64,000 nucleotides of DNA, from assembly GCA_038205745.1 (NCBI GenBank), contig JBBRBM010000005.1:2194-66193 (forward strand), read 5' to 3'. The notes under the pieces are model-generated. The model was not told where the DNA came from. It worked only from the letters and a program-made list of their open reading frames with translations, and ran no database searches. Numbering within the stretch: position 1 is the first letter of the stretch; every line of letters begins with the position of its first letter. Position numbers and translations under genes: made by a program. This stretch comes from Verrucomicrobiota bacterium. Lineage in GTDB: Bacteria > Verrucomicrobiota > Verrucomicrobiia > Limisphaerales > SIBH01. Positions 26,011-60,825 of the stretch are shown in pieces.

Positions 26011-28690
26011 TCAATCCATCAGCAGCACGCGATAGAACCGCGACGTGTCCACACTGGGGGAGTTGGTGATCGATGTGGTGGAGCCGGTGGCAGTGATGTC
26101 GTTGCCGAGCGTGATCCAGTTGGTTGATTGGATTGTGGAGGTGTATTGCACGCGATAGCGCTTGCCCGAATACGTTGGCCAACGGACGACGACCTGGCTC
26201 GGTGATGTCTTCGCAATGCGCACGGACGGCGCCGCCAAACCCGCCTTCAGTTCCAGGTTAAAATCCATGATCGAGCTGCCACCGCTGCGTTGATGCACTT
26301 CGGCTGCGACGACGTTGTCCCCGACGACGAGGAAATCGGTGGCAGGGAAGGGGCCGCGCAGGAGGAACCACGTCTTGTTCGTGCCTGAAACGCTGCTCGA
26401 CGCCACGGTGCGATAGCCGATCGCGCCTTGCGGCATGTTGTCGCGGAAAACTTCTGCACCGTTCACGTAAACCACCACGCCGTCATCCCGCTGGACGGCG
26501 AAGTTCAAGGCCGTGAAGAGGGAGGGATCTCTAATGGTGAAATGACGGCGGAAGTAAGTCGTGATGTACTTGCTGCTCGAACTCGGGCCGTAGCTGACGA
26601 TCGTGGTTTCGGTGCCGCCGTTGTAGCCGAGTTGCGCGGGGCCGTTCGACCCTCCCGCGTCGGGGAACGCCAAGGCCCGCCACGCGTTGCTTTGATCGGT
26701 GCCCTTGTCGAGATACTTCCAGACGGCGTTGCTGGCGATGATGACGACGTTCGAGAGCCTGCCGCCCGTGACCGGTAACACCGTGGTGACGTTGGTCACG
26801 TTGGAGAGCGGATTGATGTTGTTCGTTTCGTCCAAAGTTTTCAGTGCGACGTAGTAAGTCTTGCCCGAGCCCAAGCCGCTGATCGTGAATGTTTGAATCG
26901 TTCCTGCCGCGGCAGGCAGGGGCTCGCCGATCGACTGGGATGCAGAAGCAAAATTCCCCGCAGTGATCGTGCTCGTGCTGAAACGCACGTCGTAGGCGGT
27001 CGAGGTGAAGTTCAAGTTGTCCGTCGAGCGTTCGACGCGGAAGCCTTGTTCGTTTGTGGCGTTGTCGCGCCACACGAGATTGATCTGGCTGCTCGATACG
27101 GCGGTGGCAACCAGAGCGCTGGGTGCTGCGGGATTGGTCGTGGGTGGCGCGGCTTTAATGAGGTTGAGATAATCTCCAATCGTCCCGCCCACCTGCAAAA
27201 ACTTCATGTCGAGGCGGCTGCCATTCACATCGATCACGACCGAACCGACAATATCGAGCGAGACAAACATGGCGGGATGATTGAGCGATCCACCGGTGGC
27301 ATGGCCTGAGGATCCGGCGACGGTGTAAACAGCGCCCTCGTGCGGCGCGTTTCCGCCCGGCTTCTGGTGCGCGCCGCCTTCGTCCTCCCGTCCGCTGCCA
27401 CCAACTTTCTTCATCGCTTGCGCGAGGGTGCTCGAATAGCCGTAGTGCCCATCCAGCAGGAACGAGCGTTCGTATGAATCTTTGCAGAAGTACCTCTAAG
27501 TCTCGCCGCGGACCGCTCCCTGACGGTCGCGGCTCTTCCGTGAGAGCCGCGACCGTCAGGGAGCGGGAGGATGCACATACTTTCGCAACGATTGCTAGCA
27601 GTGACTGTGACCGCAGAGCACGAGATCAACACCGAAGTCTTCCAAAATCGGCACGATGTTTTCCCGAACCTCAACAAGATCGCCTTCCGCGTCAGAATCG
27701 TGGCTGCCTTTCGTGTACGGCGGGTGGTGCCAGTAGGCGATGATCCATTCCTGCGCCGTGGCTGCGAGATCGGCGCGGAGCCAATTGCACATCGGCCCAG
27801 TCGACAATGTGCTCGACGTGGCGCAGTCGAGACAGATGAAGTGAATGTTCGCGTAGTCGAACGAGTAGTACGCTCCGTCCCGCTCGGCACGCCGCCCGCC
27901 TCACCGTTTTGCGGCAGAGCGGCCCCGGCTCGGCTTCCAGCGCGGGAAAAAGTTGGCGTTGCAGATGATGGAAGATCGTCGTCAGGTCAGCCATGTATCG
28001 CTGACGGTCCGCTGGCCTTGCTGTTCAAACAAACCAGAAATATTCCCCAACAATCCGGGGTTTTGAAATAGGCTGCTGTGTGTACGGATTAGTGAAGTGG
28101 AACGGCGGATGCAGCTTCCTGGACGCAAAGACCACGGGCTGGGAAGATCAAGCTGCAGATGTTTTTCGGGCATCCTCCTGGAAGCGGGCCGAACACCCTC
28201 AATCTCCCGGCGGATACCATGGTTCTGCGGCCGAGCCGGCGAGGTTTTCGGCATCCCGCCGGGGTTTCGCTCCCATGGCCTTTCGTTTGAGCGGAAACAC
28301 GGTTTTTTTGGGGAAAACATTAAGGAGTGGAGTGTGAATTTCCCAAGGTTCTGCGGGAGTTTTCTATGATTCTTCGGAACTTTGCCAAGGTTCCAGAGTT
28401 TCAGTCCATGGTTTGGGGTGCAACCGCATGCGAGAAAACCGTTCCATCCCATGCCCGATGACTGTTTCACAGGAAAGAACGGAAGCACTACATGAAATCC
28501 ACCCTCCATTAGATTACATTTGGCTTGGAAGTGAACGTCCTGCGCGCGATGGACTCCCTGGCACCTCGGAGCCTGATATTTACGAGTTGCAGGCCGGCTT
28601 AAATGGCCGGCCAAATGCCTGATACTCGGAGTCAGTGCCGCTGTTGTAAGCGTTATCGCCAATCGCATGTCGCGCGACAGGCTCAAGTGG
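26011..28690 (-). pseudogene. Disrupted calcineurin-like metallophosphoesterase (purple-acid-phosphatase-like) with FN3, CBM-like and C-terminal FYRV domains
   Basis: Four pieces lie on the minus strand. (1) A decayed N-terminal piece with AIGDNAYNSGTDSEYQ (28646-28690). (2) A central piece ...GAYYSFDYANIHFICLD...WHHPPYTKGSHDSD...LVLCGHSHC* (27595-27900). (3) A 123-bp insert. (4) SYERSFLLDG... continuing into the intact ORF 26011..27414. Pieces 2 and 4 are in the same frame but are separated by two in-frame TAG codons. Confidence 0.75.
27478..27600. mobile_element. 123-bp palindromic MITE-like insertion inside the metallophosphoesterase GHSH/SYER motif
   Basis: Perfect 24-bp stem CCGCTCCCTGACGGTCGCGGCTCT (27513-27536) / AGAGCCGCGACCGTCAGGGAGCGG (27543-27566). 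The outer imperfect IR is TTGCAGAAGTAC / ATACTTTCGCAA. The element lies exactly between codon H (27601-27603) and codon S (27475-27477) of the expected GHSH-SYERS motif. Confidence 0.8.
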
Positions 28691-29144
28691 AAGGCTGCTT
28701 TCGGCAAGAGCTTTCAGAAGGGTGCACTCAGGTCCAATTGGTGCTGAGGCCGAATCGGCACCAGAGATCGAACCTCATGCACATCCGGTATCCGGCCCTC
28801 CATGGTACCGGAAAACGAAGACACTTTTGCTTTGCAGGCGCTGAGAAACGAGTGCGCAAATCCACCGATTCGCCTCACGACGGTAAGCGGGGTGAAACGC
28901 GATTAACCGGGGTGGACAACCGTTCAGTAGGGGCAAGATGCAGAATGTTTCAAAAAAAGTCTTGCCAGCTTGTTACGCGTAGCGCACAAATAACAACACC
29001 CAAAGCATGAATCGAACGTCCAGAACTGTCGTCCTTCGGCAATTGGTTGCCACCTCAAGCGCACCTGTGCTTGTTCACCGCGTCTCCATGATCCTCTCGT
29101 TCCGCTCCTGCTTCGATCTGATACGGAAAAACTGAAAAGGAAGT

Positions 29145-32100
29145 ATGCAAACAAAATACCCAAGTCGCACCGGCACATTTGGAAAAAGCCGTCTGCTTAA
29201 AGCATTCTTGTGTCTCGGCGCCGCCCTCGCGCTGAGCGCCAGTGCAAACGCTGCGATCACGCAGGATATTGCGGCCACCCACATCGCATGGGCGGCCACC
29301 AACGGCATCACCATTGTCAACGGTACGCCGACGACATGGGGGCTCGTTGCGGATTCGACTTCCAGCGGTGGTTTGGTCCTTGAGGAGCAGGGTGCGTCCG
29401 ATACCGCCAACACCGCCAGCACCGCCGAATGGACGCTTGTCTTTAAAACCGCCGGCACGTACCAGCTCTATATCAAGTATCGTCTCAGCCCGTGCTGCGG
29501 TGGCAACAGTTACAAATTTCCCGACTCGTTCAGCGCGACCCCGGTCTATCTTGTCTCGAAGGCAAACGAGAATGGCGCAGGCCCGACGAGCTACACCGTG
29601 CTAAAGGAGCAAGTGCAAAATGGCGGTGCTCTCGCCACGTTCACTGTGTCGCAGGCAGACGTGGATAATGTAACGCCGCTGACCTTCAAGATCGGCACGC
29701 GCGAAGCGGCTGGTATGCGCTTCGACCGTATCATGCTCAGCACTGATACAACCCTCGATACGGCGAACGGTGCTGGATTCAACGCGCTTCCGAACAGTGG
29801 CGCTGGATTAAGCTTCACGGTGCAGCCGGCCGACACGGCCTTGGATGTGGGCCAGAATGCAAGCTTCGCCGCTACCGTTGCGGGTGGCACGTCCCCTTAC
29901 ACTTATCTTTGGTACACAAACGGCATTGCAGACGCGGTTTCTGGTTTGAATCCCACCTACAGCCTGAATGGCGTCACTAACGCGGACAACGGTCGCACGT
30001 TCCAGCTTGTTGTGACGGATGCCGGATCGATTTCCATTACGAGCCGTTTGGCGACATTGACCATCAATCCGATCCATTTTGTCAGTGACTTGGCCGACGT
30101 TACGGTGCCGTTCAGCCAGACGGCCACGCTCTCCGCCACGGTTGTCTCCGGTGCAGCGCCTTACACGTATCAGTGGATCACCAACGGCATCGTGGATCCA
30201 TCCGTTACCGCCGCGAACTATTCGTTGACGAACGTTGGAACGGCTGAAAATGGCCGGACATTCCGCGTCATCGTGACTGATTCCACATCGATCAGCATCA
30301 CCAGCCGGGTGGCGACCTTGACGGTGCTTGAGGCGGCGGGTCGCATCGGTGTGAGCTTCACCGGACGCATTGCCGATAATACCCCGGCGCCCCTTGTAAA
30401 TCCGGGTGATGTTGCGGGTCTTCTGCCGCAGGGCAATTGGAATAACATCAACAACAGCAGCACGTTCGGCGGCGCAAGCGGCGCATTCAACGACGGAAAT
30501 GGAGCAGCGACCACTGTGACCCTCACTTACGACGCGAATGACTCTTGGCATAACGACGGTGCTACCGGCACCCCCAATGAGAAGCTGATGAAAGGCATCA
30601 GCAAGGCTGGCGGTGCCAATCGTAAGAATGTTTACACGTTCAACAATGTTCCTGCCGGATTGTATGACCTGATCGTTTACCTCAACGTCAACGGCGATAA
30701 CCGCATTGGTGACATTTCCTGCGCGGGAGTTACTTACTACTACACCTCACAACACCAATTCGGGGGAACCTTCCTTCAGATTCAGAATCAGAATCCAGCC
30801 GGACCGCGGGATCTCGGCAATTACGTGAAGTTCCGTGTTCTGGCGAATGCCGCGAATCAGATTCCGATGACTTTCATTAACCGTGACGCTAACGACGGCA
30901 TTGGCCTCTCGGGTTTTCAATTGGTTCCTTTGGCCCCGCAACTGGCCATTTCATCCCAGCCTTCCGACGTGTCCAAATATGTGGGACAGAGCGCCAACTT
31001 CTCCGCGAGCGCGGTCTTCGGCACGACGCCTTACACGTACCAATGGTACACTAACGGAGTGGCTGACACGGTCAGCGGTTTGAGTTCCAGCTACAGCATC
31101 GGCGGAACCACCGTGGTTGACAGTGGACGCACCTTCCAGCTTGTTGTCACGGATGCCACCTCGCTCAGTGTGACCACCCGCGTGGCGAGACTGATAAAGG
31201 TGCTGCCGAACAGGGACATCAGCCTCAATTTTGTCGGTCGAAATGCCGGCGGATATCGAATCACGCCGCTGCTTACCGCGGGTGTGGTCCCTCGGACCAA
31301 CTGGAACAACAACGTGGCTTCCGGCGAAATGCCGACTTCCGGCGATAGCCCTGCGCTGAACGATGATGCGAACAATGCCACTCCTGTCACCGTGCATTGG
31401 GAATCCACGGATGGGTGGGATAATAATACGGATTTCAACAACCCGGACGGCAATTACAAGATGATGAAGGGCGAATACAAGGTCGCCAACGGACAGGCGG
31501 GCTTGATTGTGTTCAATAACCTTCCGCCGGAATCGGCGTTTGATTTCTATGCTTACACTGCGGTGAACAACGGCGGTGCCCTCCCCGGTAACGTTCAACT
31601 TAGTCTTTGGGTCACCAATCAGGCGAACCCAGGGTCTGGCACCATTTCGATAACCAACTATTCACGCGAGCCTGATAATTACGGCGGTACTTTTGTGCTC
31701 GCAGAAAATTTCAACCCCGCGGCCAGTTTTCCCGGCGGCAATTACGTTAGAATTACCAACGTCTTCTCCGCCGCGAACGGTACTCTGTTCCTTGGCGTCA
31801 AGCACATTGCGGGCGGCGATGGTGCCGGCATCACTGGCATTCAACTGATCCGTCGCGCTGATATGTCAGTTGCTCCCATGGCGCTTGTAAGCGGCAGCGT
31901 CACTCAAGCACCCAATCCTGCCTTTGAGGGTTCTCCGTTTACGTTGGGCGGCTTCAGCGCTTCGGGAATCGGACCTCGAACTTATCAATGGCAGACAAAC
32001 ACGGCTCACGACGGAAGTGGCACTTGGGTCAACGTTGCTGGTGCGAATGGCGCGACCTTCACAGGCATACCGTTCTTTTCGGAAAGCGGCACCCAGTATC

Positions 32101-35100
32101 GTTTGATCGTCGCGAATAGCTTGAATTCCTTGACCAGCGCGCCCGTGGCGATCCAAGTGGTGCAGGATGTTACCAGTCCCACTTTGGTAAGCGCCTTGGG
32201 CGGTGCAAATCGAACGTCCATCTATTTGACATTCTCAGAGCCGATGCGCGTGCAGGACGCGACCAATCTGGCAAATTATGTCGTGACCAACTCCGCTGGC
32301 GGATCACTGAGCGTTACGGGTGGAGTGGTGCTTGTCGACGGTAAGACCGTCGTTTTGGGGACGGCGTTCCAAGCCGGCGGCGCCCAATACGGAATTGTCA
32401 TCACCGGGATTCGTGACCGCGCGTTCAACCTGAACACGATCACACCAAATCCGACAGTGGCAACGTTTACCAGTTACGATCTGGATTATCTCCCCGGCCA
32501 GGTATTGTTCAGGGCATATAACGTAGGGGCTGGTAATGCAATCGCCCAGTTGACCGGCAATCCGCTTTACCCGAATACCCCTGACTACTCACAACTCATC
32601 AATGCCATGAACAGCCGGGGGGCGAACGACCCGGCGAATCCCGGATTCTACACTGGAAATACCCGTGAAGCTTTCGGCGGAACGATTGCCGGTCATTTCA
32701 TCCCTCCGGCATCGGGCAACTGGATTTTCTACGTTAGCTCCGACGACGATGGCCAATTGGTGATGAATACCAACGGGCCGAGCGCTTCTGGTGCCAGCAT
32801 TGTGCGGTTTGCTCCAGGTTGCTGCCGGGCTCTTGCGAACGGTGCAGATCCTACGCCGCCGATCAGTTTGATCGCCGGGCAAGCTTACTACATCGAAGCG
32901 CAGTATAAGGAAGGAACCGGCGGCGACTACGTGGAAATCGGCGCCCGCCTGCAGGGTAGTACCGCTCCGATCGTTCCAATACCGGCTTCACAATTGGCAT
33001 ACCTGACGAAGATGGCGATTACGCAACCTTTGGCTGATATCAATGTGGAAGAAGCCCACGTCGGCGTGTTCAGCGTCGGTGTTTCGGTGGGCGGCGCCGG
33101 TGGCGTCAGGTATCAATGGGCGCGCAGCACCGACACCAGCGGAACCACCTTTACGAACCTGCCCGGCGCGACAGGTTCGACGCTGGCTGTGGGACCCGTT
33201 TTTGGAGTTAACGACAATGGTTTCAAGTTCCGGGTAGTCGTCAGCAATCCAATCACATCCTTCACAAATATCGCCACGCTCAACGTGATCCCGGATCTCG
33301 CGGCACCGCGTTTGGTTTCGGCGAGTGTTGATAACGCGCTGCGGCAGGTGTTGCTCACATTCAATGAAGCGATGAACACCAATGCAGATGCGTTCCTGGC
33401 GGATCCACTGAGCTACACGTTCCTCGATGCTCAGAGCAATCAATTGAACCTCGACTTTAGCGGAGCGATCACGAGTTCATCGAATGTACTCTTTACCCTC
33501 GTGCCGGGACAGTTGTTGGACAATACCGTATATGGCATTGCAAACCTCTGCTGTATCAGTGATGCGAACTCGAATGCTCTCGATTTCAATTACAGCATTG
33601 CGATGTTCCGCACGCCCACTTACAGCCGCGGCTTCGCGAAGTATGACTTCTACATGGGTTTCGGGGGAACGACAATTCCTGCATTGTTGGCCTTGCCGAT
33701 CTATCCGAACTCGCCAAGCCTGACCTACTACACGAACAACCTCGACTTCCCGCAGACGGTGGTCGTCGGATCGCCAAACGGTTTGGATAATTACGGGCTG
33801 CGTATGTCGGGATTCTTTGTGCCTCCAGTCACGGGCAATTACACCTTCTGGTTCAAGAACGACGACGACGCTCGCTTCAGCATCAGTACAGATGAATCGC
33901 CCGCGAATCTCGTCACCGTCAGGGATTCGGCATGTTGCAGTGGCAATTTTTGGAACCCGGCCACTGTCACCAACCTCGTGGCCGGACGGCGCTACTATTT
34001 CGAAGGGTTGGTCAAGGAAGGCGGTGGCGGAGATTATCTCACCATCGGAGTCAATGAACCGGGTAGCAGTACGACGAATGCTATTACCGGGAAATACATT
34101 GAAGCTGCGGTGACCACGAACTTTGCGCCGAATGCCGGAATCTCGCAACAACCCGTAAACGCCACGGTGGAAGAAAATCACGTCGCTGTGTTCACGGTTG
34201 GAGTTACCAACACGGGTAACTATGCGCCATTCGTCCAGTGGCAGACTAACTTCGGAACCGGCTTTGGGGACTTCCCGGGTGCCATCGGCACCACAGTCAC
34301 GACGCCTCCGCTGCCGTTGGCTGCGAATGGCATCCAGATCCGCGCAAAAGTTTATTTGCCAGGCCTGACCCTGATCAGCACTCCTGCGACAATCTTTGTA
34401 ACTGCGGATACAAACAAACCCCTCGCGTTGTCTGCCGCGTCAGCCAACGGCACTCAGATAGGCGTGCGTTTCTCAGAACTCCTTTCATCGGGAACGGCAA
34501 CCGACACCAACAACTACGCGGTGAACGGTGAACGTCCGCTCTCAGCGACCGTGCGGCCGGAAGGCAGCAATGTTGTTCTCATCGTCGCGACACCCGTCGG
34601 CAAGGAATTCACCGTGGTGGTGAGTAATCTCACCGACATCGCTTCGACACCAAACGTCGTGAGCAATACCACGCTGCTCGGCAAATACTGGATTGATACC
34701 GTCGTTGATATTGGCAACCCGACACCGGCTGGTGTTCACTTCTCCGGCAAGGAAGGTCAAATCGAAGTTGCAGCCGGTGGTGCTGATGTCTGGGGTACCA
34801 GCGATCAATTCACCTATGCTTACTCGTCGCGCACGAACGACTTCGACGTCAAGGTGCGTGTGGATGCTGTGCAGTATATCGGTAACAACTGGACCAAAGC
34901 GGGCATTAACGCGCGGTCATCCACCGACACGAACGCCAGCATGGTCTGGTTCTATCCGACGCCTCCGGAAGGTGGGTCGCACACCTATGAGGGCGCGATT
35001 CGGTACACCAACGGGGTTAACATTGGGGCAGACTTCCAGCCCCGGCCCAACGTTGTCCTGCCTTCGTGGCTCCGCCTCGTTCGCAATGGTTCCGTGTTTA

Positions 35101-35453
35101 GTCCGTACATTTCGACGAATGGCATCAACTGGGATTTGTTCGGCACGAATGCGCCTTACGCGGCTCCTGACCTCCCGGCGGTTCTGCTGGTCGGGCTTGG
35201 AACGGTGTCGCATGTGGATGGAACCGCCGCGACCGCGAAGTATGCTGAGTTCGGCGACACGCATCCCACGTTGTCACTACAGGTGATCGGAACGAACCTG
35301 GTGATCCGCTGGGATGGCACAGGCGAACTTCAATACACCGACAACCTGCCGGCTGCATGGATTCCGCTCCCGGCGGCGAAGAGCCCGTATACGGTGCCTA
35401 TGGATCAGGCGCACCGCTACTATCAAGTGCGGCGTCTGTTCCCGAACCAATAA
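29145..35453 (+). CDS. Giant secreted surface protein (2,102 aa): CBM-like N-domain, Ig-like repeats, two unassigned NWNN domains, SbsA-Ig-like plus PA14 pairs, concanavalin-like domain, C-terminal YYQV domain
   Basis: Signal peptide LLKAFLCLGAALALSASANA. Ig I-set-like units (QPADTALDVGQNASFAATVAGGTSPYTYLWYTNG). PA14-like cores GNWIFYVSSDDDGQLVMN...YKEGTGGDYVEIG and GNYTFWFKNDDDARFSIS...VKEGGGGDYLTIG. LamG/DUF1349-like GGADVWGTSDQFTYAY...NWTKAGINARSS...PSWLRLVRNGSVFSPYISTNGINW. The gene is followed by a strong terminator. Confidence 0.9.
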   Translation: MQTKYPSRTGTFGKSRLLKAFLCLGAALALSASANAAITQDIAATHIAWAATNGITIVNGTPTTWGLVADSTSSGGLVLEEQGASDTANTASTAEWTLVFKTAGTYQLYIKYRLSPCCGGNSYKFPDSFSATPVYLVSKANENGAGPTSYTVLKEQVQNGGALATFTVSQADVDNVTPLTFKIGTREAAGMRFDRIMLSTDTTLDTANGAGFNALPNSGAGLSFTVQPADTALDVGQNASFAATVAGGTSPYTYLWYTNGIADAVSGLNPTYSLNGVTNADNGRTFQLVVTDAGSISITSRLATLTINPIHFVSDLADVTVPFSQTATLSATVVSGAAPYTYQWITNGIVDPSVTAANYSLTNVGTAENGRTFRVIVTDSTSISITSRVATLTVLEAAGRIGVSFTGRIADNTPAPLVNPGDVAGLLPQGNWNNINNSSTFGGASGAFNDGNGAATTVTLTYDANDSWHNDGATGTPNEKLMKGISKAGGANRKNVYTFNNVPAGLYDLIVYLNVNGDNRIGDISCAGVTYYYTSQHQFGGTFLQIQNQNPAGPRDLGNYVKFRVLANAANQIPMTFINRDANDGIGLSGFQLVPLAPQLAISSQPSDVSKYVGQSANFSASAVFGTTPYTYQWYTNGVADTVSGLSSSYSIGGTTVVDSGRTFQLVVTDATSLSVTTRVARLIKVLPNRDISLNFVGRNAGGYRITPLLTAGVVPRTNWNNNVASGEMPTSGDSPALNDDANNATPVTVHWESTDGWDNNTDFNNPDGNYKMMKGEYKVANGQAGLIVFNNLPPESAFDFYAYTAVNNGGALPGNVQLSLWVTNQANPGSGTISITNYSREPDNYGGTFVLAENFNPAASFPGGNYVRITNVFSAANGTLFLGVKHIAGGDGAGITGIQLIRRADMSVAPMALVSGSVTQAPNPAFEGSPFTLGGFSASGIGPRTYQWQTNTAHDGSGTWVNVAGANGATFTGIPFFSESGTQYRLIVANSLNSLTSAPVAIQVVQDVTSPTLVSALGGANRTSIYLTFSEPMRVQDATNLANYVVTNSAGGSLSVTGGVVLVDGKTVVLGTAFQAGGAQYGIVITGIRDRAFNLNTITPNPTVATFTSYDLDYLPGQVLFRAYNVGAGNAIAQLTGNPLYPNTPDYSQLINAMNSRGANDPANPGFYTGNTREAFGGTIAGHFIPPASGNWIFYVSSDDDGQLVMNTNGPSASGASIVRFAPGCCRALANGADPTPPISLIAGQAYYIEAQYKEGTGGDYVEIGARLQGSTAPIVPIPASQLAYLTKMAITQPLADINVEEAHVGVFSVGVSVGGAGGVRYQWARSTDTSGTTFTNLPGATGSTLAVGPVFGVNDNGFKFRVVVSNPITSFTNIATLNVIPDLAAPRLVSASVDNALRQVLLTFNEAMNTNADAFLADPLSYTFLDAQSNQLNLDFSGAITSSSNVLFTLVPGQLLDNTVYGIANLCCISDANSNALDFNYSIAMFRTPTYSRGFAKYDFYMGFGGTTIPALLALPIYPNSPSLTYYTNNLDFPQTVVVGSPNGLDNYGLRMSGFFVPPVTGNYTFWFKNDDDARFSISTDESPANLVTVRDSACCSGNFWNPATVTNLVAGRRYYFEGLVKEGGGGDYLTIGVNEPGSSTTNAITGKYIEAAVTTNFAPNAGISQQPVNATVEENHVAVFTVGVTNTGNYAPFVQWQTNFGTGFGDFPGAIGTTVTTPPLPLAANGIQIRAKVYLPGLTLISTPATIFVTADTNKPLALSAASANGTQIGVRFSELLSSGTATDTNNYAVNGERPLSATVRPEGSNVVLIVATPVGKEFTVVVSNLTDIASTPNVVSNTTLLGKYWIDTVVDIGNPTPAGVHFSGKEGQIEVAAGGADVWGTSDQFTYAYSSRTNDFDVKVRVDAVQYIGNNWTKAGINARSSTDTNASMVWFYPTPPEGGSHTYEGAIRYTNGVNIGADFQPRPNVVLPSWLRLVRNGSVFSPYISTNGINWDLFGTNAPYAAPDLPAVLLVGLGTVSHVDGTAATAKYAEFGDTHPTLSLQVIGTNLVIRWDGTGELQYTDNLPAAWIPLPAAKSPYTVPMDQAHRYYQVRRLFPNQ

Positions 35454-35470
35454 ACAGAAACGATTCACAA

Positions 35471-35500
35471 AGACCGGAGCTTCGGCTCCGGTCTTTTTTT
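35471..35500 (+). terminator. Rho-independent terminator of the 2,102-aa gene
   Basis: AGACCGGAGC-TTCG-GCTCCGGTCT is a perfect 10-bp stem with a tetraloop, followed by TTTTTTT, 18 nt after the stop. Confidence 0.9.
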
Positions 35501-35589
35501 GGGGGGATATGAGAGTTTGCGCCGTATCGTGCCTCATTCCCGGCGGCTCACGTGAACCTGTGTTCAACCATTGCTTTTGCTCTCCGCAG

Positions 35590-36227
35590 CGATGGTTCTT
35601 CAATGCGGCGCGGCAACGGTGCGAAAACTCGGCAACGCTGGAGCACGTAGGCATCGTGAGTGGCGCGGTGTTTACTGACTTCAACGGCGACGGTGCGCCC
35701 GAACTGGTTCTCGCGTGCGAATGGGGGCCGATCCGCATTTTTCAAAATCGCAACGGTCATTTCAGTGAAGTCACCGAAGCGCTGGGGATGAAGAAGTTTC
35801 TCGCGTGCTGGACGGCAGTTACAATTGGTGATTGCGATGGGGATGGCCGTATGGATTTCGATGGCGATGGGTACGAGGACATTTTTCTCGCGAGGAACTT
35901 TTTCGGCACAACTGTCGACACATCGCGCCACGATGAGGTCGTGGTTTGTTGCTGCGCGGTTCAGGCGGAAACATCAACGGCATCAGCGCGGTGCTGCGCC
36001 CTGTATTCGCGGATGGATCTCTGGGAGCTGCGCGGGAGATTCACGCCGGCAGCGGATGGCTTTCACAGGACAGCGCCGTGCAAGTGCTCGCGGGCGCACG
36101 TGAAATCAAAGCGGTGGCTGTGCGTTGGTCGAACGGCAAGGTGACAAGAACCCAAGTGGCGCCAGGCATCACAGAGATCGTGATTGATGCCACCACGTTC
36201 AGCGAATTCCCAATCCCTTCCAGATAA
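35590..36227 (+). pseudogene. Truncated, frameshifted remnant of a CRTAC1-family (FG-GAP/VCBS plus ASPIC/UnbV) protein
   Basis: Frame A reads ...VFTDFNGDGAPELVLACEWGPIRIFQNRNGHFSEVTEALG...IGDCDGDGRMDFDGDGYEDIFLARNFF. Frame B (35946..36227) reads LLLRGSGGN|INGISAVLRP...REIHAGSGWLSQDSAVQVL...VRWSNGKVT. There is no N-terminal half and no plausible start. A frameshift sits near 35930 and an internal deletion is apparent. Confidence 0.65.
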
Positions 36228-40147: not shown

Positions 40148-43100
40148 CTAGAATTCCAATACGCGATAGAAACGGGTGCGTGCGGTGAGTCCATCTTCGA
40201 TGGTCGCAGTGTAGATGTCTGACTGCAGCGTTCCATCAATGGTCCTCCAGGTGGAGAGCACTTCGGAATCGAGCGTCGTCCACTCAGGATCGGAGAGGTC
40301 GTCTTTGTATTCGACCTTGTAAGCACGCCGCGTGAAGCCGTCCCACCTCAGTTGGACCACCTCTCCGTTGACTCGGATGATCGGTGCGATGGTGCCGCGC
40401 GGTTCCATTGGCGCGGGAGTCGGCGCGCCCTCGGCCGTGAATGAAAGCTGATCGACCCATGCGCGATCGTCGCCCGCCACGCCGGAGGTGTTCTTGAAGT
40501 AAGTCCATTCGAGAAACTGCGGGCCGGAACCAAGTGCGATGAAGCGTTGTTCCCAATCCACTTCGCCGGAGACAAATGCTTCGGGAATGTCGTTCACCGA
40601 GAAGACCAGCACGTCCGAGTTTGTCTCCGATGACACTTTCCACCAGAAGCTCAACATGCCGGGTCCGTTCAGCAGCGTTTGCATCGAACTGCTTTGGCTA
40701 TCGCTGACGATTCCGCTCCGTGCGGCATCCACGCCATCGTGAGAGATCACCGCGTGGCCCTCCCATAACGCGTTGCCGTCGGTCGTGAAGGGCAGGTCCG
40801 GCGCGTCCATCGATTCCTCAAGTGTGAGGAGGTGATTGATGGTCAATCGCGCGACCAGACTCGTGACCGAACCCGCGCTGTTGCTCACGACGACGGAATA
40901 GTTGCCCGCCTGAGGTCCGAGCACGTTGAAGAGAGTGAGGTCTGAAGTCGTCGCCCCGCCCACGTTGCCGCCGTCGATGACGACGTTCGTGCCATTGAGG
41001 AACCAGCGATAGTGGAGCGGCGCGGTGCCGCTTGCGACAATGCTGAAGTCCACCGTCTCGAACTCATCCACGATCTGGCTCACCGGTTGGAACAGGATTC
41101 TCGGCGGCTGTGGAGTGGCCGGAGTTGAACCGTTGGGCGTAAAGCTTACTTCATCAACCCAGGCGCGATCCTGGCCTGCGGCGATGGTTGAGTTCTTCGA
41201 ATAGCGCCACTGAATCTCGTGGGCGCCGGAAGGCACGTTGAACAGGATCGGTTGCCACTCGATTTCACCGGAGATGCGGACCTGATCATTCCCGTCCATC
41301 ATCAGGCGGAGAAAGTCGTGGTCTTGCTCGGAGGAAACCTGCCACCAGAAAGTGAGCACGCCCGGGCCGTTCACAGTTGTCTTGATCCACGTATAAGTGC
41401 TGTTGCCGATGGTGCCACTTGCGGCGGCGTCTTCGCCGTCGTGGAAGTCGCTGGCGTGGGTGGACCACGGATTGCCGGTGCCGCCAGTGGTAAACGTGAG
41501 CTGCGGCGCATCGAGCGCTTCGGCGAGCGACGGCCAGATCGTGAGCGAAGCGGTCAGACTTGTGACTGAACCCGCGCTGTTGCTCACCACCACGGAGTAA
41601 GAGCCCGCATGGGAAACCTGAGCGTTCGTAATGAACAATGTGGGGTTCGTCGCACCGCCGATGGGCTGGCCGTTAAACAACCAACGATATCCAAAAGGTG
41701 TCGTGCCCGCGGCGCTCACGGAGAACCCTGCGGTCTCGCCCGCGTCAATGGCGACCGAGGCGGGATGGCCACCGATCGTCGGCGCGACAACTCCGAAGCG
41801 CACCTCATCCACCCACGCGCGATCCTGCCCGACGGCCGTGCTGCCGTTCTTGGTGTAACGCCATTCGATGACTTGAGTGCCGATGCCAATGTTCATCGAA
41901 ACGAGACGCCAGTCCGTTTCACCGGAGATGCGCGCCCGTTCCGTACCGCCGATGAAGAGGAGCAGCACGTCATTGTTTGTTTCAGAGGAAACTTTCCACC
42001 AGAACGTCAAGGTGCCTGGTCCGGTCACCGTCGTTTGCATCGTCGAAGTCCCACTGTTGCCAATCGTACCGCTGCGCGCGGCGTCGAGACCATCGTGAGA
42101 GACGAGCCCGTGCCCGGTCCACGCGGTGTTCACCGTCGTCCAACTCAAGGCGTCGTTGTCGACTGCCTCGGCAAGAGGAAGCAGCGACAAGACTTTGAGG
42201 ACCGCGCTGGTGCTCGTCGTATTTCCGGCGCCTCCATTGATCACGACCCGATAGTTGCCAGCGTCCGCTGGTTGAGCCCCGGCGATGACCAGGTTCGATG
42301 AGCTCGCACCACTGATGCTTCCGCCGTTCACGATGTTCACACCCTCGTGCTGCCATTGATAGGTGAGAGGCGGAGCGCCAATGGCGGTAACGCGGAAGCT
42401 GGCCGTGCCGCCGACATCGATATTTTGGTTGGCAGGCTGCGCTGTGACTGCGGGCGCAAGGAGCCCGAACACGACTTCGTCAACCCAACCACGGTCGCGC
42501 CCTGCGCTGCCGGTCGCGTTCTTCGCGTAGGCCCAACGCAGCACCTGCGATCCTGACCCAATGCTGAAAGTCTGAACCTGCCAATCGACTTCCCCGGAGA
42601 TGCGCGCTTGTTCGACGTTGTTCACGGTGAACGTCAGCCGGTCGTTGTTTGTTTCCGACGACACCTTCCACCAGAAGCTCAGCGTGCCTGGACCAATTAC
42701 AACGGATTGCATCGCGTTCGATCCGTTGTTCGTGATGGCCCCGCTGCGCGCCGCATCAGTGTCGTCGTGCGACACGATCATCTGGCCGACCCATGGCGGT
42801 GAGCCGTTGGTGGTCCAAACCAGATTCGCGATGTCGAGTGCCGTGCTGAGCGGGATGAGTGAAGTCACCGTAAGCAAGGCGTTCGAGCTGACAGCAAACG
42901 TTTCGGGATTGCTGACGCAGAGCGAGTACATGGCGCTGTGCGTGAGTTGCGCGTTGGAGATCACAAGCGTCGTCGTACGCGCGCCGCTGATGCCTGCGCC
43001 GTCCCGGATATCAACTCCGTTCGATCTCCATTGATAATTGAACGGTGCATACCCGGTGGCCGCTGAACTGAAGGTGGCGCGTTCGCCTTGTTCTACAGCC

Positions 43101-46100
43101 AGGCTGACGGGTTGCAACGTGAAGCGCGGCACGGTGGGCGTAAACGAGAATTGATCCACCCAACCGCGATCCTGGCCCGCGACGCCGATGGCATCCTTGG
43201 AATATGTCCACCGCAGGACATGATCGCCTTCCGGCACGTTTGCGATGAGGGTCTGCTGCCATCCGGCTTCGCCGGAGAGTTGCCCAAAGTTGTTATTGTC
43301 CACGGAGAAAGTCAGAAAGTCGTGCGACAGCTCGGATGAAGTTCTCCACCAGAACGCAACGTTGCCCGGTCCGGTGACCGTGGCTTGCATCGATGCGGAT
43401 TTATTGTCACCGATCGCCGGGCTGCGCGCCGCGTCCACGCCATCGTGCGTCACATTCGTCTGGCCGATCCACGGCGGTGTGCCGGTGGCCCAGATGATGT
43501 TCGTCGTATCCAGCGCGGGCGCCAGCGGCAGAACGGGAGCGACGGTGATCTGCGCGTTCGAACTGATGACGATGCCTCCAATATTGCTGACCAGAAGCGA
43601 GTAAGCGCCGCTCTGCGTCAACTGCGCGGCCGTGATGCGCAATGTTGGCGTCGTGGCACCGCTGATGTTGCCGCCGTCGTTCATTGCCACGCCATTGTAG
43701 CGCCAGCGATACATGACCGGCGGAACCGCACGCACGCCCGCCGAGACAATTGTGATCGATCCCACGTCAACCAATTGCGATGGCGGCTGATTGGTAATCA
43801 GGGGCGGCGCGGGAGCGAACGCCACTTCGTCCACGAAAACTTGATCGGTGCCATTGGTGAGCAGTGCGTCCTTGGCGTACTCCCATTGCAACACCGAGGG
43901 ACCCTCGCCGAGCGTGAATGACTTCTGTTGCCACGCAACAGTTCCGGAGATTTGCGTTCGCACGATGTCATTGATCTTGAACTTCAGGAAGTCGGCGTTC
44001 AGTTGAGTGGAGGCGCGCCACCAGAAACTGACCGTGCCCGGACCAGTCAACGTGGTGCGCATCCACGATGTATGGCCGTCATCTGTGTAACCGGGCCGCG
44101 CGCATTGGGTGCCATCGTGACTGCCCGAAGTGGTGCCGATCCACCACGAATAACCTCCCGTTTCCCAAACCCACGCCGGTGTGTTCAATGCCGGAGCCAG
44201 CGGTAACGAAGGATTCACGCGCAGGTAAATCACTTCGCTCAGATGCGACCCGGCCTCGTTCGCCACTTCGCAGATGTAGAAGCCGGTCTTGTCCGGTTGC
44301 GCATTGGATAGGATCAGCTTGGGCGACGTAGTCGCACCCAGCACCGTGGCGCTTTCCGTCAGGTTGGACCCATTCTTGCGCCATTGATAGGTCAAGGGAA
44401 GCGTGCCGGATGCTTCGACGCGGAAGCGCGTGGTGGTCCCCTGTTCAACGATGTTCGTATTCGGCGCGGTGTTCGTTACTTCGGGAGAAATCGCCAGGAA
44501 CTCGAGACGATCGAGCCAGCCGCGATCACGGCCTGCGCTGCCGGATGCGTCCTTATTGTATTCCCAACGCAACAGTGCGCCGTTGGTGGAAATGGGGATC
44601 GAGCGCTGTTGCCATCCGACTTCGCCGGAGATTCTCGCCTGCTCGGCACCGTTGATCAGGAAGCGCAGGTAATCGTGGTTCGTTTCGCTGGACACCTTCC
44701 ACCAAAACGTCAGCGCGCACGAAACGGGCAGCGTCGTTTGCACCCAGTTCGATGCCCGGTTGGCGACCGGCGAGCTTTGCGCGGCGTCGAACTGGTCCTT
44801 TGTTTCCACTGTCTGACCGATCCAGGGAGAATAGCCGCCGGTGAACCACAGGAGATTCGTTCGATCGGTGTCGAGCGCGATGGGTAATGACACAGTCTTA
44901 AACACGCTGAGGAAAACCTGTGTGCTGATATCGAGACCGTAGGCGTTGCGTACCGTCACGTCGTACAAACCGCTCTGTTCGGAACGCACATTGAACAAGC
45001 GCAGCGTGGGTGAGTTTGCGCCCAGAGTGTTGATGTCGTCGCCGAGATTCTGTCCCTCGAACCGCCATTGGTAACTCACGGGCGCCGTTCCAAGCGCGTC
45101 CGTGGAGAACGTCACCGTGACGCCGGGATTCACACTCAGGCTCACAGGTTGCAGAACGAGCAGCGGAGGCGTCGGCGCGTTGTTCGGAATAAAATCCACT
45201 TCATCGAGCCAGCCGCGATCGAGTCCGCTCGTGACGATCGCATCTTTGTTGTAGCTCCACCGCAACGTCAGGTCGCCGGGTGGCAACGGGATCGACAATT
45301 TTTCCCAATCGACGATGCCGGAGATGCGCGCCTGTTCCACACCGTTGATCGAGAAAATCAGGAGGTCCGCATTCGTCTGCGAAGAAACCTTCCACCAGAA
45401 GCGAAGCGTGCCGGGCCCTGTGATGCGGGTTTGGATCCATGCGTTGCTGCCGTTTGCCACCGCGCCGCTTTGAGCGGCAGCTTCGCCGTCGTGGGTCACA
45501 TTCGTCTGCACGATCCACGCGCCCGACGGCGATGTCGTCCATTCGAGATAGGGCGCGTTCACCGCGTCGCCGAGATTCAGCTTCGGCACCACGATCAGTT
45601 GTGCGTTCACGCTGAGGGTCGATCCGCCGGTGTTGCTGACTTCCACGGAGTACACACCCGACTGCTCAGGTTGCACGTTCGCGAGAGTCAACGCTGCGGT
45701 CGCCGTGCCGCTCACGCCATCTCCGTCGATGAGATTCGTTCCATTGAGACGCCATCGAAACGTGAGGGGCGCGCCAGAAGCCGACACGGTGAATGTTACG
45801 TTCGTTCCTTCCAGAACCACCCGGCTGATCGGTTGACTGGTGATCACCGGAGGAGTGAGAACAGTCAATGTGGCGTTGGCGCTCGGCGCATTCCCCACGG
45901 CGTTGCTCACGACCACGGAATAGGGGCCGCCCCGCGCGACCTGAACATTGTTGATCTGCAACGTGGGCGAAGTGGCGCCGCTGATATCGCCGCCGTTGGC
46001 CAGGGCCACGCCATTGAAGCGCCATTGGAAACTCAGGGGTGCCGAACCAGCCGCCGTCGCGCTGAAGGTTGCCGTGCCGCCAAGAGCAATGGATCGATTC

Positions 46101-49100
46101 GTCGGCTGAGTAACAATCGTTGGCAGGGTGCTGATGACCAAGGTCGCCGGAGCGCTCGTGACACTGCCGGCGGCATTCGTGATCACGACGCTGTAGCTGC
46201 CGATGTTCGACGCGCCAACATTGGTGATGCGGAAGTTGGTCGAAGTGACGCCGCTGAGATTTCCGGCGCTAACCAGATTTGTTTCGTTCAACTGCCACTG
46301 ATACGCGAGCGGCGCGGTGCCGATGGCTGAGAGGATAAAGTTCGCAGTGCCTCCAGCGAGCAGGTTCTGGCTCGCAGGCGGGCTCGTGATCACAGGCGCA
46401 GTGATGACGCTCAAGTTCGCCACGCTGCTGGTCACACTGCCGGCAGAGTTCGCCGCCACAACTGCATACGTTCCTTCCGACGCCCCACTGGCGTTGGTGA
46501 TAATAATGTTCGTGGCCGTGACGCCGTTGATGCCGACACCGTTCGCGAGCGGCGCACCGTTAAACAACCACTGATACGTCAGTGGTGCAGAGCCGACCGC
46601 GATCGCGCTGAAGCTGACACTTGCCGGAGCGACGACAGTTCTATTGACCGGTTGAATCGCGAATACCGGCGAAGTCGGCGTGTTCGTGGCGACGAATATG
46701 ATTTCATCCACCCAGCCGCGATCCTGTCCGCCGGAGACGCTGTTATTTTTCGTGTAGCGCCACTCGATGATTTGATTGCCGGCGCCGATCGGCAACAGGC
46801 GCCATGTCCAATCGACTTCACCGAAGGTGCTTGCCTGTTCAGTGCCATTGATGACGAGACGCAGACGATCATTCGTCTCTGACGACACCTTCCACCAGAA
46901 GCTCAGCGTGCCCGGGCCGACGACAGTGGTTTGAAACGAGTTCGTCTGGCTGTTGCCGATGCGTCCGCTGCGCGCGGCGTCGGTGCCGTCATGGCTGACA
47001 CCGGTCTGGCCCACCCACGGCGGATTTCCGTTGGTCGTCCACGTGAGCGACGGAGCGTCGAGCGCTTCGGCGAGCGGCACGAGTTCGGTCACTTGCAGCA
47101 GAGCGTTCGAGCTAAACACGCCGCCAGCGGGATTGCTGACGAGCACGGCGTACGTTCCGCTTTGCGCAGCCGAAACATTGGACACCGTCAGCGTCGCGCC
47201 TGCGGCACCTGGAATATCGACGCCATTCCGCTGCCATTGATAACGCAGCGCGGGTGCCCCGCTCGCGCTGGCGGCGAACATCGCAGTCGCTCCCGGATCA
47301 AGATTCTGATCGAGTGGCTGCGCAGTGATCACCACGGGAGCCGGCGCTACCTGCACCTGATCCACCCAGCCACGGTCCTGGCCGGATGAGATCGAACCGT
47401 TCTTCAAATAGGTCCAGCCCAACGTCTGCGTGCCGGCACCCAAACTGAACGTGCGTTGTTCCCAATCCACTTCGCCTGAGATGCGCATCTGTTCCGTGCT
47501 GTTCACAAAAAACAGAAGACGGTCGTTGCTCGGCTCGGAAGAAACTTTCCACCAGAACGTCAGTGTGCCCGGCCCGCTCACGGTGGTTTCGAACGAGGCC
47601 GTTTGATTGTGCGTGATCGACCCGCTGCGCGCGGCATCCACGCCGTCATGGATCAACAACGCCTGCCCGAACCACGGTGCGTTCCCTGACGTGGTCCACG
47701 TGAGATTTGTGGCCTCCAGCGCGTCACCCAGCAAAACGGCGGGTATCACGTTCAACGACGCAGGCGCGCTCGCCACGCTGCCGCCAATGTTCCCAACGAT
47801 GACCGAATACAACCCCGCCTGAGCCGGCAACACGTTGGACAAAGTCAGCGTGGCCGTGTGCGTGCCGCGAATGAGAGTGCCGTCGGAAAGTGCAATGCCG
47901 TTCAGCAACCATTGATACGAGAACGGTCCCTGGCCAGTCGCTCCGATGGCGAACGTCGCGATTCCGCCTTCGTCCGCATTCTGGTTTGCGGGCTGACTGG
48001 TGATCGCCGGCGGCGTGGGCACATAAACAATTTCATCCACCCAGCCACGATCTAATCCCCCCGTGATGCTGGAGTTTTTGGAATAGCGCCAACGGAAATT
48101 GTGACTGCCGGCCGAGAGATTGAGCGAACGCCATTCCCAATCCACTTCGCCTGAGATGCGGAATTGTTCGTTGCCGTCCAGATACAGGCGCAGGCGATCG
48201 CTCCCCGGTTCCGACGACACTTTCCACCAGAAGCTCAGCGTGCCTGGCCCGACAAATGTGCTTTCGAAGTAAGCCTCGCCACCGTCGGCCACCGGCGCGT
48301 TCTCTCCCGCGTCGAAACCATCGTGAGTCACATTGGTCTGGCAGCGCCATGCGTTCGCGCTGCTGAACTGCCAGTTGAAATCCGCTTCGAGTGATTCAGC
48401 GAGAGAACAGAGCCCGAGCACATCGGCTGAGGCGTCAGCAAAGCTCGTGGGCAAAGCGCGACCGAGCACGTCCACCAAGCGTCGTGCCACGGGCGCATCG
48501 CAGAACGAAACGGGAGTGCTGGCGCGCCCATTGATGACGAGCGCACTCAAACAAACCTGCACGGTTGCCGGCACCGTCGAGGTCAACGTGGTCCCCGGCG
48601 GCAAAGCGATGGTGAATCCGATTCGGCCGCGTGGAGCATCGCTCGTGTTCACGTTCAACGTGGCGTTGGCCCATGTGCCTGCCTGTAGTTTGGCGCTGCG
48701 ATACCTCAGCAGGTTCGTGTCGATACAGATGCTGAAAGCGAGAGTGTTTTCGCCGCCGTGGGGCAGCATCGAAATCGAGAGGCAATTCGTCTGCCCGCCC
48801 GGTATGGCGAGATTCCCGGCTGTTATCGTGCGGACGGCGCTCGCTTGTGAGATCGAGAAATCCTGTTCGCCGATCACGAGCGTAGTGTTTCGAGTGCCAC
48901 CAGTGTTCGGCGCCACGAAGTAAATGACGTTCCCCGATCCTTCGCCCGTTGCCCCGGAAATGATGGTGATCCACGACGGAACACTCGCGACAGTCCAGGG
49001 ACAGCCTGATTCCGTTGAGACAAGTAATTCAGCCACACCACCATCTTCTCCGAAAGCTGCCTCCTCGGCACCGATGGTAAAGAGGCATGGTTTGCCGGAT

Positions 49101-59997: not shown

Positions 59998-60024
59998 AAG
60001 TGCGCGTTCCCAAACGCACCACTC

Positions 60025-60756: not shown

Positions 60757-60825
60757 CCGGAGCGCAGAGTTCCAGCCCTGCACAAACAATCTCAACTCGC
60801 GGAGTTTGAACTCCGCGTTCCAATT

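Follow-up and report, generated by a model that had tools for sequence, protein, structure and literature searches.

The PA14-containing RTX adhesins, such as MpIBP of Marinomonas primoryensis and MhLap of Marinobacter, are very large, non-catalytic, modular proteins, in which arrays of immunoglobulin (Ig)-like spacers hold out a Ca2+-dependent PA14 lectin domain and one chain carries several ligand-binding modules (PMC5550230, PMC6650083, PMC8092209). In the PA14 lectin domains of the Epa adhesins, the D-cis-D motif holds a Ca2+ ion that coordinates carbohydrate hydroxyls (PMC6650083). The present analysis concerns a 64,000-nucleotide stretch of the genome of a Verrucomicrobiota bacterium (GenBank assembly GCA_038205745.1, contig JBBRBM010000005.1, positions 2,194 to 66,193), referred to below as the window, and an uninterrupted open reading frame (ORF) in it that begins with ATG and occupies 29145..35453 of the plus strand. 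The encoded protein of 2,102 amino acids is likewise very large, non-catalytic and modular and, by its domain families, appears to combine Ig-like spacer arrays with PA14 domains and several ligand-binding modules in the same chain. It is proposed, with a probability of about 0.6, that it is a Sec-exported, multivalent glycan-binding surface protein without catalytic activity, which would serve as an adhesin or in substrate capture.

Domain architecture and block duplications

The domain map was rebuilt by three routes, which included self-comparison of overlapping fragments, a phmmer search of each segment against 73 homologs, and four-round iterated profiles over 73 homologs. All three routes gave the same map, with the order comprising a signal peptide, a domain resembling carbohydrate-binding modules (CBMs) of families 6 and 35, two Ig-like domains, a domain of an unannotated type labelled here NWNN, an Ig-like domain, a second NWNN, two consecutive blocks of Ig, Big_5 and PA14, a further Ig and Big_5 pair, a DUF1349-like domain and a C-terminal tail. 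The domain order and nucleotide coordinates proposed in the initial annotation, which had been made from the sequence alone, were thus reproduced to within a few codons.

The chain contains six putative ligand-binding beta-sandwich modules of four kinds (one CBM6/CBM35-like, two NWNN, two PA14 and one DUF1349-like) and nine Ig-type spacers (six Ig_3-like and three Big_5), the latter making up approximately 40% of the protein length. As a whole, the protein scored 51.1 bits with the Pfam Ig_3 model against a cut-off of 30, and iterated profiles detected six Ig copies. The first two of them (amino acids, aa, 216-307 and 309-394; 29790..30326, plus strand, as for all parts of the gene) matched Ig_3 with an E-value of 2e-13, were also found by the iterated profiles and show 52% internal similarity. 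The third (aa 599-683; 30939..31193) matched the profile and is 54% identical to the first, and the fourth (aa 913-1007; 31881..32165), found by the iterated Ig profiles, aligns with the fifth. The fifth (aa 1288-1381; 33006..33287) and sixth (aa 1664-1753; 34134..34403) were revealed by both self-comparison and iterated profiles.

The domains labelled SbsA-Ig-like in the initial annotation do belong to the Big_5 type. The first copy (aa 1008-1111; 32166..32477) passes the Pfam cut-off of 23.6 bits, with 27.0 bits from the scan of the whole protein and 24.9 bits when scanned by itself. The second, divergent copy (aa 1384-1489; 33294..33611) has no direct Pfam match, and the third (aa 1755-1842; 34407..34670) has a sub-threshold one (15.9 bits); both were recovered by the iterated profile of the first copy, with E-values of 3.1e-16 and 4.8e-20, respectively.

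Self-comparison also confirmed the suggested duplication of whole blocks. The Ig-NWNN block at aa 325-594 matches aa 615-902, and the Ig-Big_5-PA14 block at aa 947-1400 matches aa 1323-1771, followed by a third Ig-Big_5 pair. The repeats are 27-54% identical at the amino acid level (E-values from 1e-8 to 1e-23), and the internal repeats of DNA are approximately 70% identical and at most 72%. The duplications seem to be old. An assembly artefact driven by repeats is unlikely because of this low DNA identity, and it was rejected also because the 3' end of the gene and the remnant downstream of it recur in an independent contig. No catalytic family was found at any threshold in Pfam and NCBIfam, either with the whole protein or with its pieces scanned singly, in line with the absence of a catalytic domain noted earlier.

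PA14 domains and the Asp-Asp site

The whole protein scored 43.7 bits with the PA14 family model (PF07691, gathering cut-off 24) in two stretches. The second copy (aa 1495-1647; 33627..34085), containing the motif KNDDDA, reaches 32.2 bits alone. The first copy (aa 1112-1285; 32478..32999), containing the motif SSDDDG, scores 23.8 bits alone and is homologous to the second, with an independent E-value (iE) of 5e-19 in phmmer. Both copies qualify as predicted members of PF07691, and the two PA14 domains initially assigned can be retained. The related GLEYA model gave 28.9 bits for the whole protein at a cut-off of 26.2 and a sub-threshold 24.1 bits for the second PA14 copy alone.

When the second copy was compared with sequences of the PDB using phmmer, it matched the flocculins Flo5 and Flo1 with an E-value of about 8e-4. 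In this alignment GFFVPPVTGNYTFWFKNDDDA pairs with a stretch of 21 residues of Flo5/Flo1, and KNDDDA is aligned to ATVDDS of both proteins. The SSDDDG of the first copy is found at the equivalent position of the internal alignment. The VDDS of Flo5 and Flo1 is presumably the same D-cis-D site as in the Epa adhesins. The Asp-Asp pair D1574/D1575 of the second copy would then correspond to the Ca2+- and sugar-binding D-cis-D motif.

Adjacent Cys-Cys pairs are present in the N-terminal domain (SPCCGG), the first PA14 copy (APGCCRAL), the second Big_5 copy (NLCCIS) and the second PA14 copy (SACCSG), at approximately 29490-29500, 32805-32815, 33585-33595 and 33930-33940 of the plus strand. Orthologs keep these pairs, as do many of the PA14 copies in relatives, and the pairs may form vicinal disulfides near the binding sites.

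N-terminal and NWNN domains

The N-terminal domain (aa 37-215; 29253..29789) had no match in Pfam, no match to a CBM family and only chance-level matches among PDB sequences. Its AlphaFold2 (AF2) model, with a predicted local distance difference test (pLDDT) value of 84.8, was compared with the PDB using Foldseek. The search pointed to CBM6 (2cdp), domain III of Cry toxin, CBM35 and the C-terminal domain of GH115, with E-values from about 5e-5 to 6e-4. For 2cdp, the template modelling (TM) score was 0.53-0.55 by query and 0.69-0.74 by target, and the Foldseek probability was 1.00. The designation of this domain as CBM-like is therefore supported as far as the CBM6/CBM35 fold is concerned, and it does not extend to the sequence level, where no CBM family was matched. 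Among orthologs, it is the most conserved globular domain, with an identity of 77-79%.

The first NWNN domain (aa 398-592; 30336..30920) has no Pfam match. The second (aa 691-900; 31215..31844) was matched to the first by phmmer (iE 9e-13) and by the iterated profile (8.9e-57). None of the 26 NWNN copies convincingly matched any Pfam family, and the NWNN profile gave only chance-level matches to PDB sequences. The AF2 model is of high quality (pLDDT 95.2, predicted TM score 0.92), and its best structural matches were MiXBM (7ehg) and CBM35 (2vzp and 2w1w), with an E-value of about 1e-3 and TM scores of 0.35 by query and 0.47 by target; for 2vzp, the values were 0.34 and 0.48, with a Foldseek probability of 1.00. 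Judging by this model, NWNN is an unannotated beta-sandwich, which is only distantly similar to CBM35 and CBM6. The invariant positions are occupied by Gly, Trp and Tyr (G11, G29, W36, W72, G88 and Y116), and the conserved aromatic residues would fit a sugar-binding platform. The possibility that the N-terminal domain and NWNN are paralogs was rejected, since hhalign found no relation between them.

A profile search among 1.84 billion cluster representatives found 3,095 proteins with NWNN at E ≤ 1e-3, including 1,498 at E ≤ 1e-10. The domain is often found directly behind the signal peptide, and there are proteins of about 250 aa that are little more than NWNN. In a scan of nine relatives with a length of about 1,000 aa, each showed some of the Ig, PA14/GLEYA, Big_5, DUF1349 and Laminin_G_3 domains, and none of the nine contained an enzyme domain. 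The common set of domains and the absence of enzyme domains in these relatives suggest that the window protein is an enlarged form of a widespread non-catalytic NWNN architecture. With thousands of relatives and no family model, NWNN is a candidate new carbohydrate-binding module, useful for the annotation of polysaccharide-degrading bacteria of the Planctomycetes-Verrucomicrobia-Chlamydiae (PVC) group.

C-domain

The domain preceding the tail (aa 1848-2040; 34686..35264) is the weakest of the domain assignments. It scored 13.4 bits (E-value 0.064) with DUF1349 (PF07081), under the gathering cut-off of 32.4. DUF1349 was found at E ≤ 0.01 in eight of the 12 homologous C-domain copies, and copies scanned singly gave 18.0-31.2 bits, all below the same cut-off. 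The copies are collinear with the DUF1349 profile over its positions from about 35 to 176, and DUF1349 is the sole Pfam family that recurs across them. It seems that the C-domain is related to DUF1349 remotely but consistently, without being a member of this family by the curated cut-off. A search of PDB sequences with the C-domain profile gave only chance-level matches. The concanavalin-like jelly-roll fold suggested initially, for which this sub-threshold similarity to DUF1349 is the evidence, is accordingly a tentative assignment. The domain had initially been described as LamG/DUF1349-like. The LamG part of this label was rejected, as there was no Pfam match to Laminin_G_3 (PF13385) and hhalign gave a probability of 0.1% against the Laminin_G_3 domains of relatives; the DUF1349 part stands in the remote sense given above.

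C-terminal tail

The protein ends with a conserved tail (aa 2047-2100; 35283..35444) with the pattern ...LVIRWDG.GELQ....L...W.PLP....PY.VPM....RYYQVRRLFPNQ. The last approximately 55 residues are 70-80% identical among orthologs, vs. 45-79% for the domains. A hidden Markov model (HMM) was built from the tails of 34 homologs and run on the six-frame translation of the window, where it matched exactly three ORFs, namely, the gene itself (1.9e-15), a phosphoesterase pseudogene (26014-27495, minus strand; 5.8e-8) and an ORF of 4,575 aa (40151-53884, minus strand; 2.7e-7). In 38 of the 73 homologs and 48 of the 144 representatives of the NWNN family, the last 14 residues include a terminal motif [FYW][FY][RK][LVIAM], usually followed by two to four residues, at a background of 0.0012 per 14-residue window.

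It was not possible to relate the tail to known models: nothing was found at E ≤ 1 in Pfam and NCBIfam with the whole protein, or at E ≤ 10 in Pfam with the C-terminal 255 aa. In addition, as read from the translation, the end ...RYYQVRRLFPNQ contains no hydrophobic helix. PEP-CTERM, LPXTG and the C-terminal domain of the type IX secretion system (T9SS; PF18962) were rejected on both grounds. It is likely that the tail is a sorting or anchoring element, because it is strictly terminal, conserved and common to secreted proteins with different N-terminal domains. The literature on C-terminal sorting in Verrucomicrobia, which was not surveyed exhaustively, yielded nothing specific to this tail.

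The 4,575-aa ORF (40148-53875, minus strand) carries a Chondroitinase_B domain at its N-terminus (1.9e-103), together with BACON domains and 13 or more stretches of Ig_3, and ends with the same tail. It is probably a giant polysaccharide lyase, displayed on the surface. The Ig-plus-tail scaffold found in both this putative lyase and the protein under study suggests that glycan-active proteins of this organism have a display system in common. A tentative and rather doubtful extension of this idea is that the tail is the recognition signal of an undescribed Verrucomicrobiota pathway of surface sorting or attachment, marking a set of displayed proteins, and that NWNN is at the same time a new family of carbohydrate-binding modules. 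In its logic, such a pathway would be analogous to those of the T9SS C-terminal domain or PEP-CTERM. The tail is a testable candidate for a determinant of protein placement on the Verrucomicrobiota surface, a poorly understood matter. Should either the NWNN or the tail reading be true, many giant "hypothetical" proteins from metagenomes would become interpretable.

Export signal and gene borders

An AAGGAAG site similar to a Shine-Dalgarno sequence was read at 29137..29143 (plus strand), one nucleotide ahead of the ATG at 29145. The translation begins with a predicted Sec-type signal peptide (aa 1-36; 29145..29252), which consists of a basic n-region, a hydrophobic core and an A-x-A site and ends with ALSASANA, with cleavage predicted between ANA and AITQ. 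This junction of A-x-A and AITQ is kept in both P0002 and P0073, which are full-length orthologs. A lipoprotein signal peptide was rejected, since A-F-L ahead of Cys23 does not match the lipobox motif.

The strong terminator initially noted downstream of the ORF was confirmed by RNA folding. The intrinsic terminator (35470..35500, plus strand) comprises a GC-rich stem with a 9-bp G+C core (12 pairs in the centroid fold) and a UUCG loop at approximately 35470-35495, and the stem overlaps a U7 run at 35494-35500. The predicted folding energy is -22.4 kcal/mol (z = -4.42), and none of 200 shuffled sequences folded as well.

Proposed function and alternative explanations

In the proposed mechanism, the protein would be displayed on the cell surface or released from it after Sec export, with the C-terminal tail probably responsible for sorting or anchoring. 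A stalk formed by the Ig and Big_5 domains would space the binding modules, and the PA14 domains would bind sugar hydroxyls via Ca2+ coordinated by their Asp-Asp (D-cis-D) pair. Further specificities may come from the CBM-like modules and from the DUF1349-like module, which would be similar to concanavalin A (ConA). The resulting multivalent avidity would hold the cell to polysaccharide particles, to other cells or to its own matrix. As to the carbohydrate-binding adhesin suggested initially, the domains of sugar-binding type and the lack of a catalytic domain agree with it, and the role itself continues to be an inference.

Several points weigh against this interpretation. Each step of the proposed function is deduced from the families to which the domains belong. 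The first PA14 copy alone falls 0.2 bits below the PA14 cut-off, and of the two Ca2+-binding loops of PA14 only the first is alignable. The CBM-like folds are generic beta-sandwiches, and their TM scores are modest: NWNN reaches 0.35 by query and 0.47 by target, and the N-terminal domain 0.5-0.6 by query. The C-domain is DUF1349-like only below the threshold, and the DUF1349 family is without an established function of its own. The tail fits no known sorting signal, which makes anchoring at the surface conjectural. Finally, the gene is located in a decaying stretch with a lower GC content at third codon positions (GC3) and could be poorly expressed.

Among the alternatives, a structural protein of the envelope or matrix deserves attention, although it is unlikely. 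Such a protein could be an S-layer-like or sheath component or a biofilm scaffold, and the beta-sandwiches would then be used for self-assembly or protein-protein contacts. Big_5 is the Ig-like family of the S-layer protein SbsA, the nine Ig-type domains occupy a large share of the chain, and the conserved tail could serve assembly or anchoring. Besides, the genes around the P0002 ortholog encode large beta-propeller proteins of the FG-GAP/ASPIC kind, typical extracellular proteins of the matrix type. However, the Asp-Asp pair of the second PA14 copy aligns with the sugar/Ca2+ site of Flo5, and carbohydrate-binding modules are the best structural matches of both unannotated domain types. The gene is also rare, with few orthologs and none in 59 related loci, which would be unexpected for a core envelope component.

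A cryptic enzyme, in which the DUF1349-like C-domain or NWNN has an unrecognised glycoside hydrolase or lyase activity and the rest serves as CBMs and spacers, is very improbable: the ConA-like lectin/glucanase superfamily includes glucanases, three domain types have no characterised function and the 4,575-aa neighbour carries a Chondroitinase_B head on the same Ig-plus-tail scaffold, but the scans revealed no catalytic family at any threshold, the NWNN and N-terminal models are closest to non-catalytic CBMs, enzyme domains are also missing from the relatives of about 1,000 aa, and a conserved pair of acidic catalytic residues was not identified, with Gly, Trp and Tyr as the residues invariant in NWNN.

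Orthologs, synteny and origin

Three full-length orthologs, 58-63% identical, show the individual domains in collinear order, which implies purifying selection, as far as can be judged from the sequences. The 6.3-kb ORF is intact, though both neighbouring genes have decayed. It is likely that the block duplications predate the divergence of the three known orthologs and enlarged the widespread architecture of about 1,000 aa, which combines NWNN, Ig, PA14 and Big_5 with DUF1349 or Laminin_G_3. In the NCBI database, a partial ortholog is labelled "PA14 domain-containing protein".

The independent Joint Genome Institute (JGI) metagenome contig L061, from project Ga0105047, is 99.6% identical to the window over 3,554 bp, with 13 single-nucleotide polymorphisms and no indels. 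Within this overlap are the 3' part of the gene, its terminator, the remnant further downstream and the Na_Ca_ex gene. In the 41-kb contig of P0002, an ortholog with 58% identity, the gene table lists an ASPIC gene of 1,335 aa, the ortholog, ASPIC genes of 1,228 and 1,203 aa, and Na_Ca_ex. The contig L001 adds only an ASPIC-type gene beside Na_Ca_ex, the latter being 86% identical to that of the window. This module is syntenic in a narrow clade, and its ASPIC partners have decayed in the genome of the window.

No homolog of the large gene was found near Na_Ca_ex in 59 Verrucomicrobiota loci, where the gene order is not conserved on either side, so this absence says little. Similarly, a scan of genome contigs with exact 8-residue words found no relative, and the scan was also blind to the 63%-identical ortholog (P0003/P0073), which lacks all six words. 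The Na_Ca_ex relatives come from metagenome-assembled genomes (MAGs) of Verrucomicrobiota (Pedosphaera, Limisphaerales, Opitutaceae and others), a few of which have evidently wrong bin labels. This assigns the window to a verrucomicrobium, probably of the Pedosphaerales/Limisphaerales type and from an uncultured soil or freshwater lineage. The loci L001, L002, L003 and L015, among those with Na_Ca_ex genes closest to that of the window, are labelled Candidatus Acidoferrum, Bifidobacteriaceae, Akkermansia or Haliangiales; since all other relatives are Verrucomicrobiota, these contigs are probably mis-binned or mislabelled.

One more ortholog (L060, metagenome contig Ga0170475_127337718), with an identity of 58-68%, changes from frame 2 to frame 1 at 5011-5185, being either a pseudogene or the result of an assembly error. 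Over its first 1,012 nucleotides, this sequence shows no match to the N-terminal domain of the protein under study.

The GC content of the gene (0.562, with GC3 of 0.653, uniform along the gene) is lower than in most of the 16 other genes measured (GC 0.59-0.62, GC3 approximately 0.72-0.80), which bears out the difference initially noticed by eye. Two of the 16 are also lower in GC3, one of them probably being a mis-called ORF. The correlation of relative synonymous codon usage (RSCU) was 0.895 for the gene, vs. 0.97-0.98 for two other long genes (13.7 and 3.4 kb). The low-GC3 stretch extends over approximately 27.4-36.2 kb and comprises the gene with its decayed flanks.

The question of origin is separate from that of function, and a recently acquired accessory gene or horizontally transferred island has to be considered here. 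The GC3 difference, the RSCU correlation, which is low for so long a gene, the inclusion of the decayed flanks in the low-GC stretch and the lack of a homolog beside Na_Ca_ex in the 59 species-representative loci could all be read in this way. On the other hand, low GC3 is common to the ortholog L060 (0.611) and the ASPIC gene of L001 (0.636, vs. 0.793 for Na_Ca_ex of L001), so that it characterises the module throughout the clade and is not a sign of recent import. The order ASPIC, large gene, ASPIC and Na_Ca_ex is syntenic in the contig of P0002, and ASPIC is located beside Na_Ca_ex in L001. All homologs come from Verrucomicrobiota-type MAGs, no mobile-element genes were seen among the window ORFs inspected, and the 59 loci share no gene order with the window on either side. 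This points to a long-resident, lineage-specific module and makes recent transfer improbable. Thus, the accessory origin put forward in the initial annotation is weakly supported: the low GC3 and RSCU correlation agree with it, while the same GC3 in relatives and the synteny in the P0002 contig do not.

Neighbouring genes

The pseudogene assigned initially to the upstream side proved to be a disrupted metallophosphoesterase gene (26011..28000, minus strand) with FN3-like domains and the same tail. It is broken by stops and a frame change near 27414-27600. The ORF 26011-27414 (minus strand) represents its 467-aa C-terminal part, otherwise intact, with the FN3-like regions and the tail, and the Metallophos fragment (3.7e-8) is terminated by a stop codon and lies in a different frame from this ORF. 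Approximately 1.1 kb without recognisable coding sequence separates the pseudogene from the large gene.

On the downstream side, a decayed FG-GAP/UnbV_ASPIC (CRTAC1-like) remnant of about 230 codons in two frames was found at 35455..36198 of the plus strand (FG-GAP_3, 2.8e-16; UnbV_ASPIC, 2.6e-4). Compared by tblastx with the intact gene of L001 (1662-2693), it has lost approximately 390 bp and undergone a frame change. The same remnant is present in L061. Neighbours related to polysaccharides include Chondroitinase_B, a beta-helix/NosD protein and GFO_IDH_MocA.

The 809-aa ORF 59779-62208 (minus strand), with GC at first codon positions (GC1) of 0.71, GC3 of 0.62, an RSCU correlation of 0.46 and no Pfam match, is probably not a real gene; the overlapping 60826-62307 (plus strand) may be the gene instead.

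Comparison with known systems

The gene is an ordinary member of a large, unstudied family, and for a specialist its product would be one more large uncharacterised adhesin-like protein, which is unsurprising. The leads of wider use are the NWNN family and the recurrent C-terminal tail. The literature on PA14 in Verrucomicrobia, on DUF1349 and on giant Ig-like surface proteins, examined non-exhaustively, contained nothing specific to this protein family.

The likeness to the RTX adhesins described at the outset concerns size, modularity and the arrangement of spacers and ligand-binding modules. Unlike them, the window protein has no RTX/HemolysinCabind match in Pfam and NCBIfam, and no type I secretion elements were recognised. 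It possesses instead a predicted N-terminal Sec signal peptide, spacers of the Ig_3 and Big_5 types, two PA14 copies together with NWNN, CBM6-like and DUF1349-like modules, and an unannotated tail, and its host belongs to Verrucomicrobiota. By its predicted composition, it is not an RTX adhesin.

The fungal Flo/Epa adhesins with PA14/GLEYA domains (PDB 2xjp and 4lhl) provide the best PDB sequence match of the second PA14 copy. They share with this copy the pattern G[FY]F.PP.TG.YTF.F...DD, including the Asp-Asp Ca2+ site. However, only about 32 residues are aligned (E-value of about 8e-4), and the window protein is bacterial and has neither a glycosylphosphatidylinositol (GPI) anchor nor a Ser/Thr-rich stalk. 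The CBM6 and CBM35 modules (2cdp, 2vzp, 2w1w and 7ehg) share the beta-sandwich fold, which is the best structural match of the N-terminal and NWNN domains. In contrast to true members of these families, neither domain shows membership at the sequence level, and NWNN is about 60 residues longer, with a TM score by query of about 0.35.

The clostridial RsgI anti-sigma factors (PMC6852018) differ from the window protein, which is far larger, lacks a transmembrane anti-sigma module and has its PA14 copies separated by Ig and Big_5 domains. In both cases, two PA14 domains are placed in one extracellular polypeptide, which in the clostridial proteins serves polysaccharide recognition.

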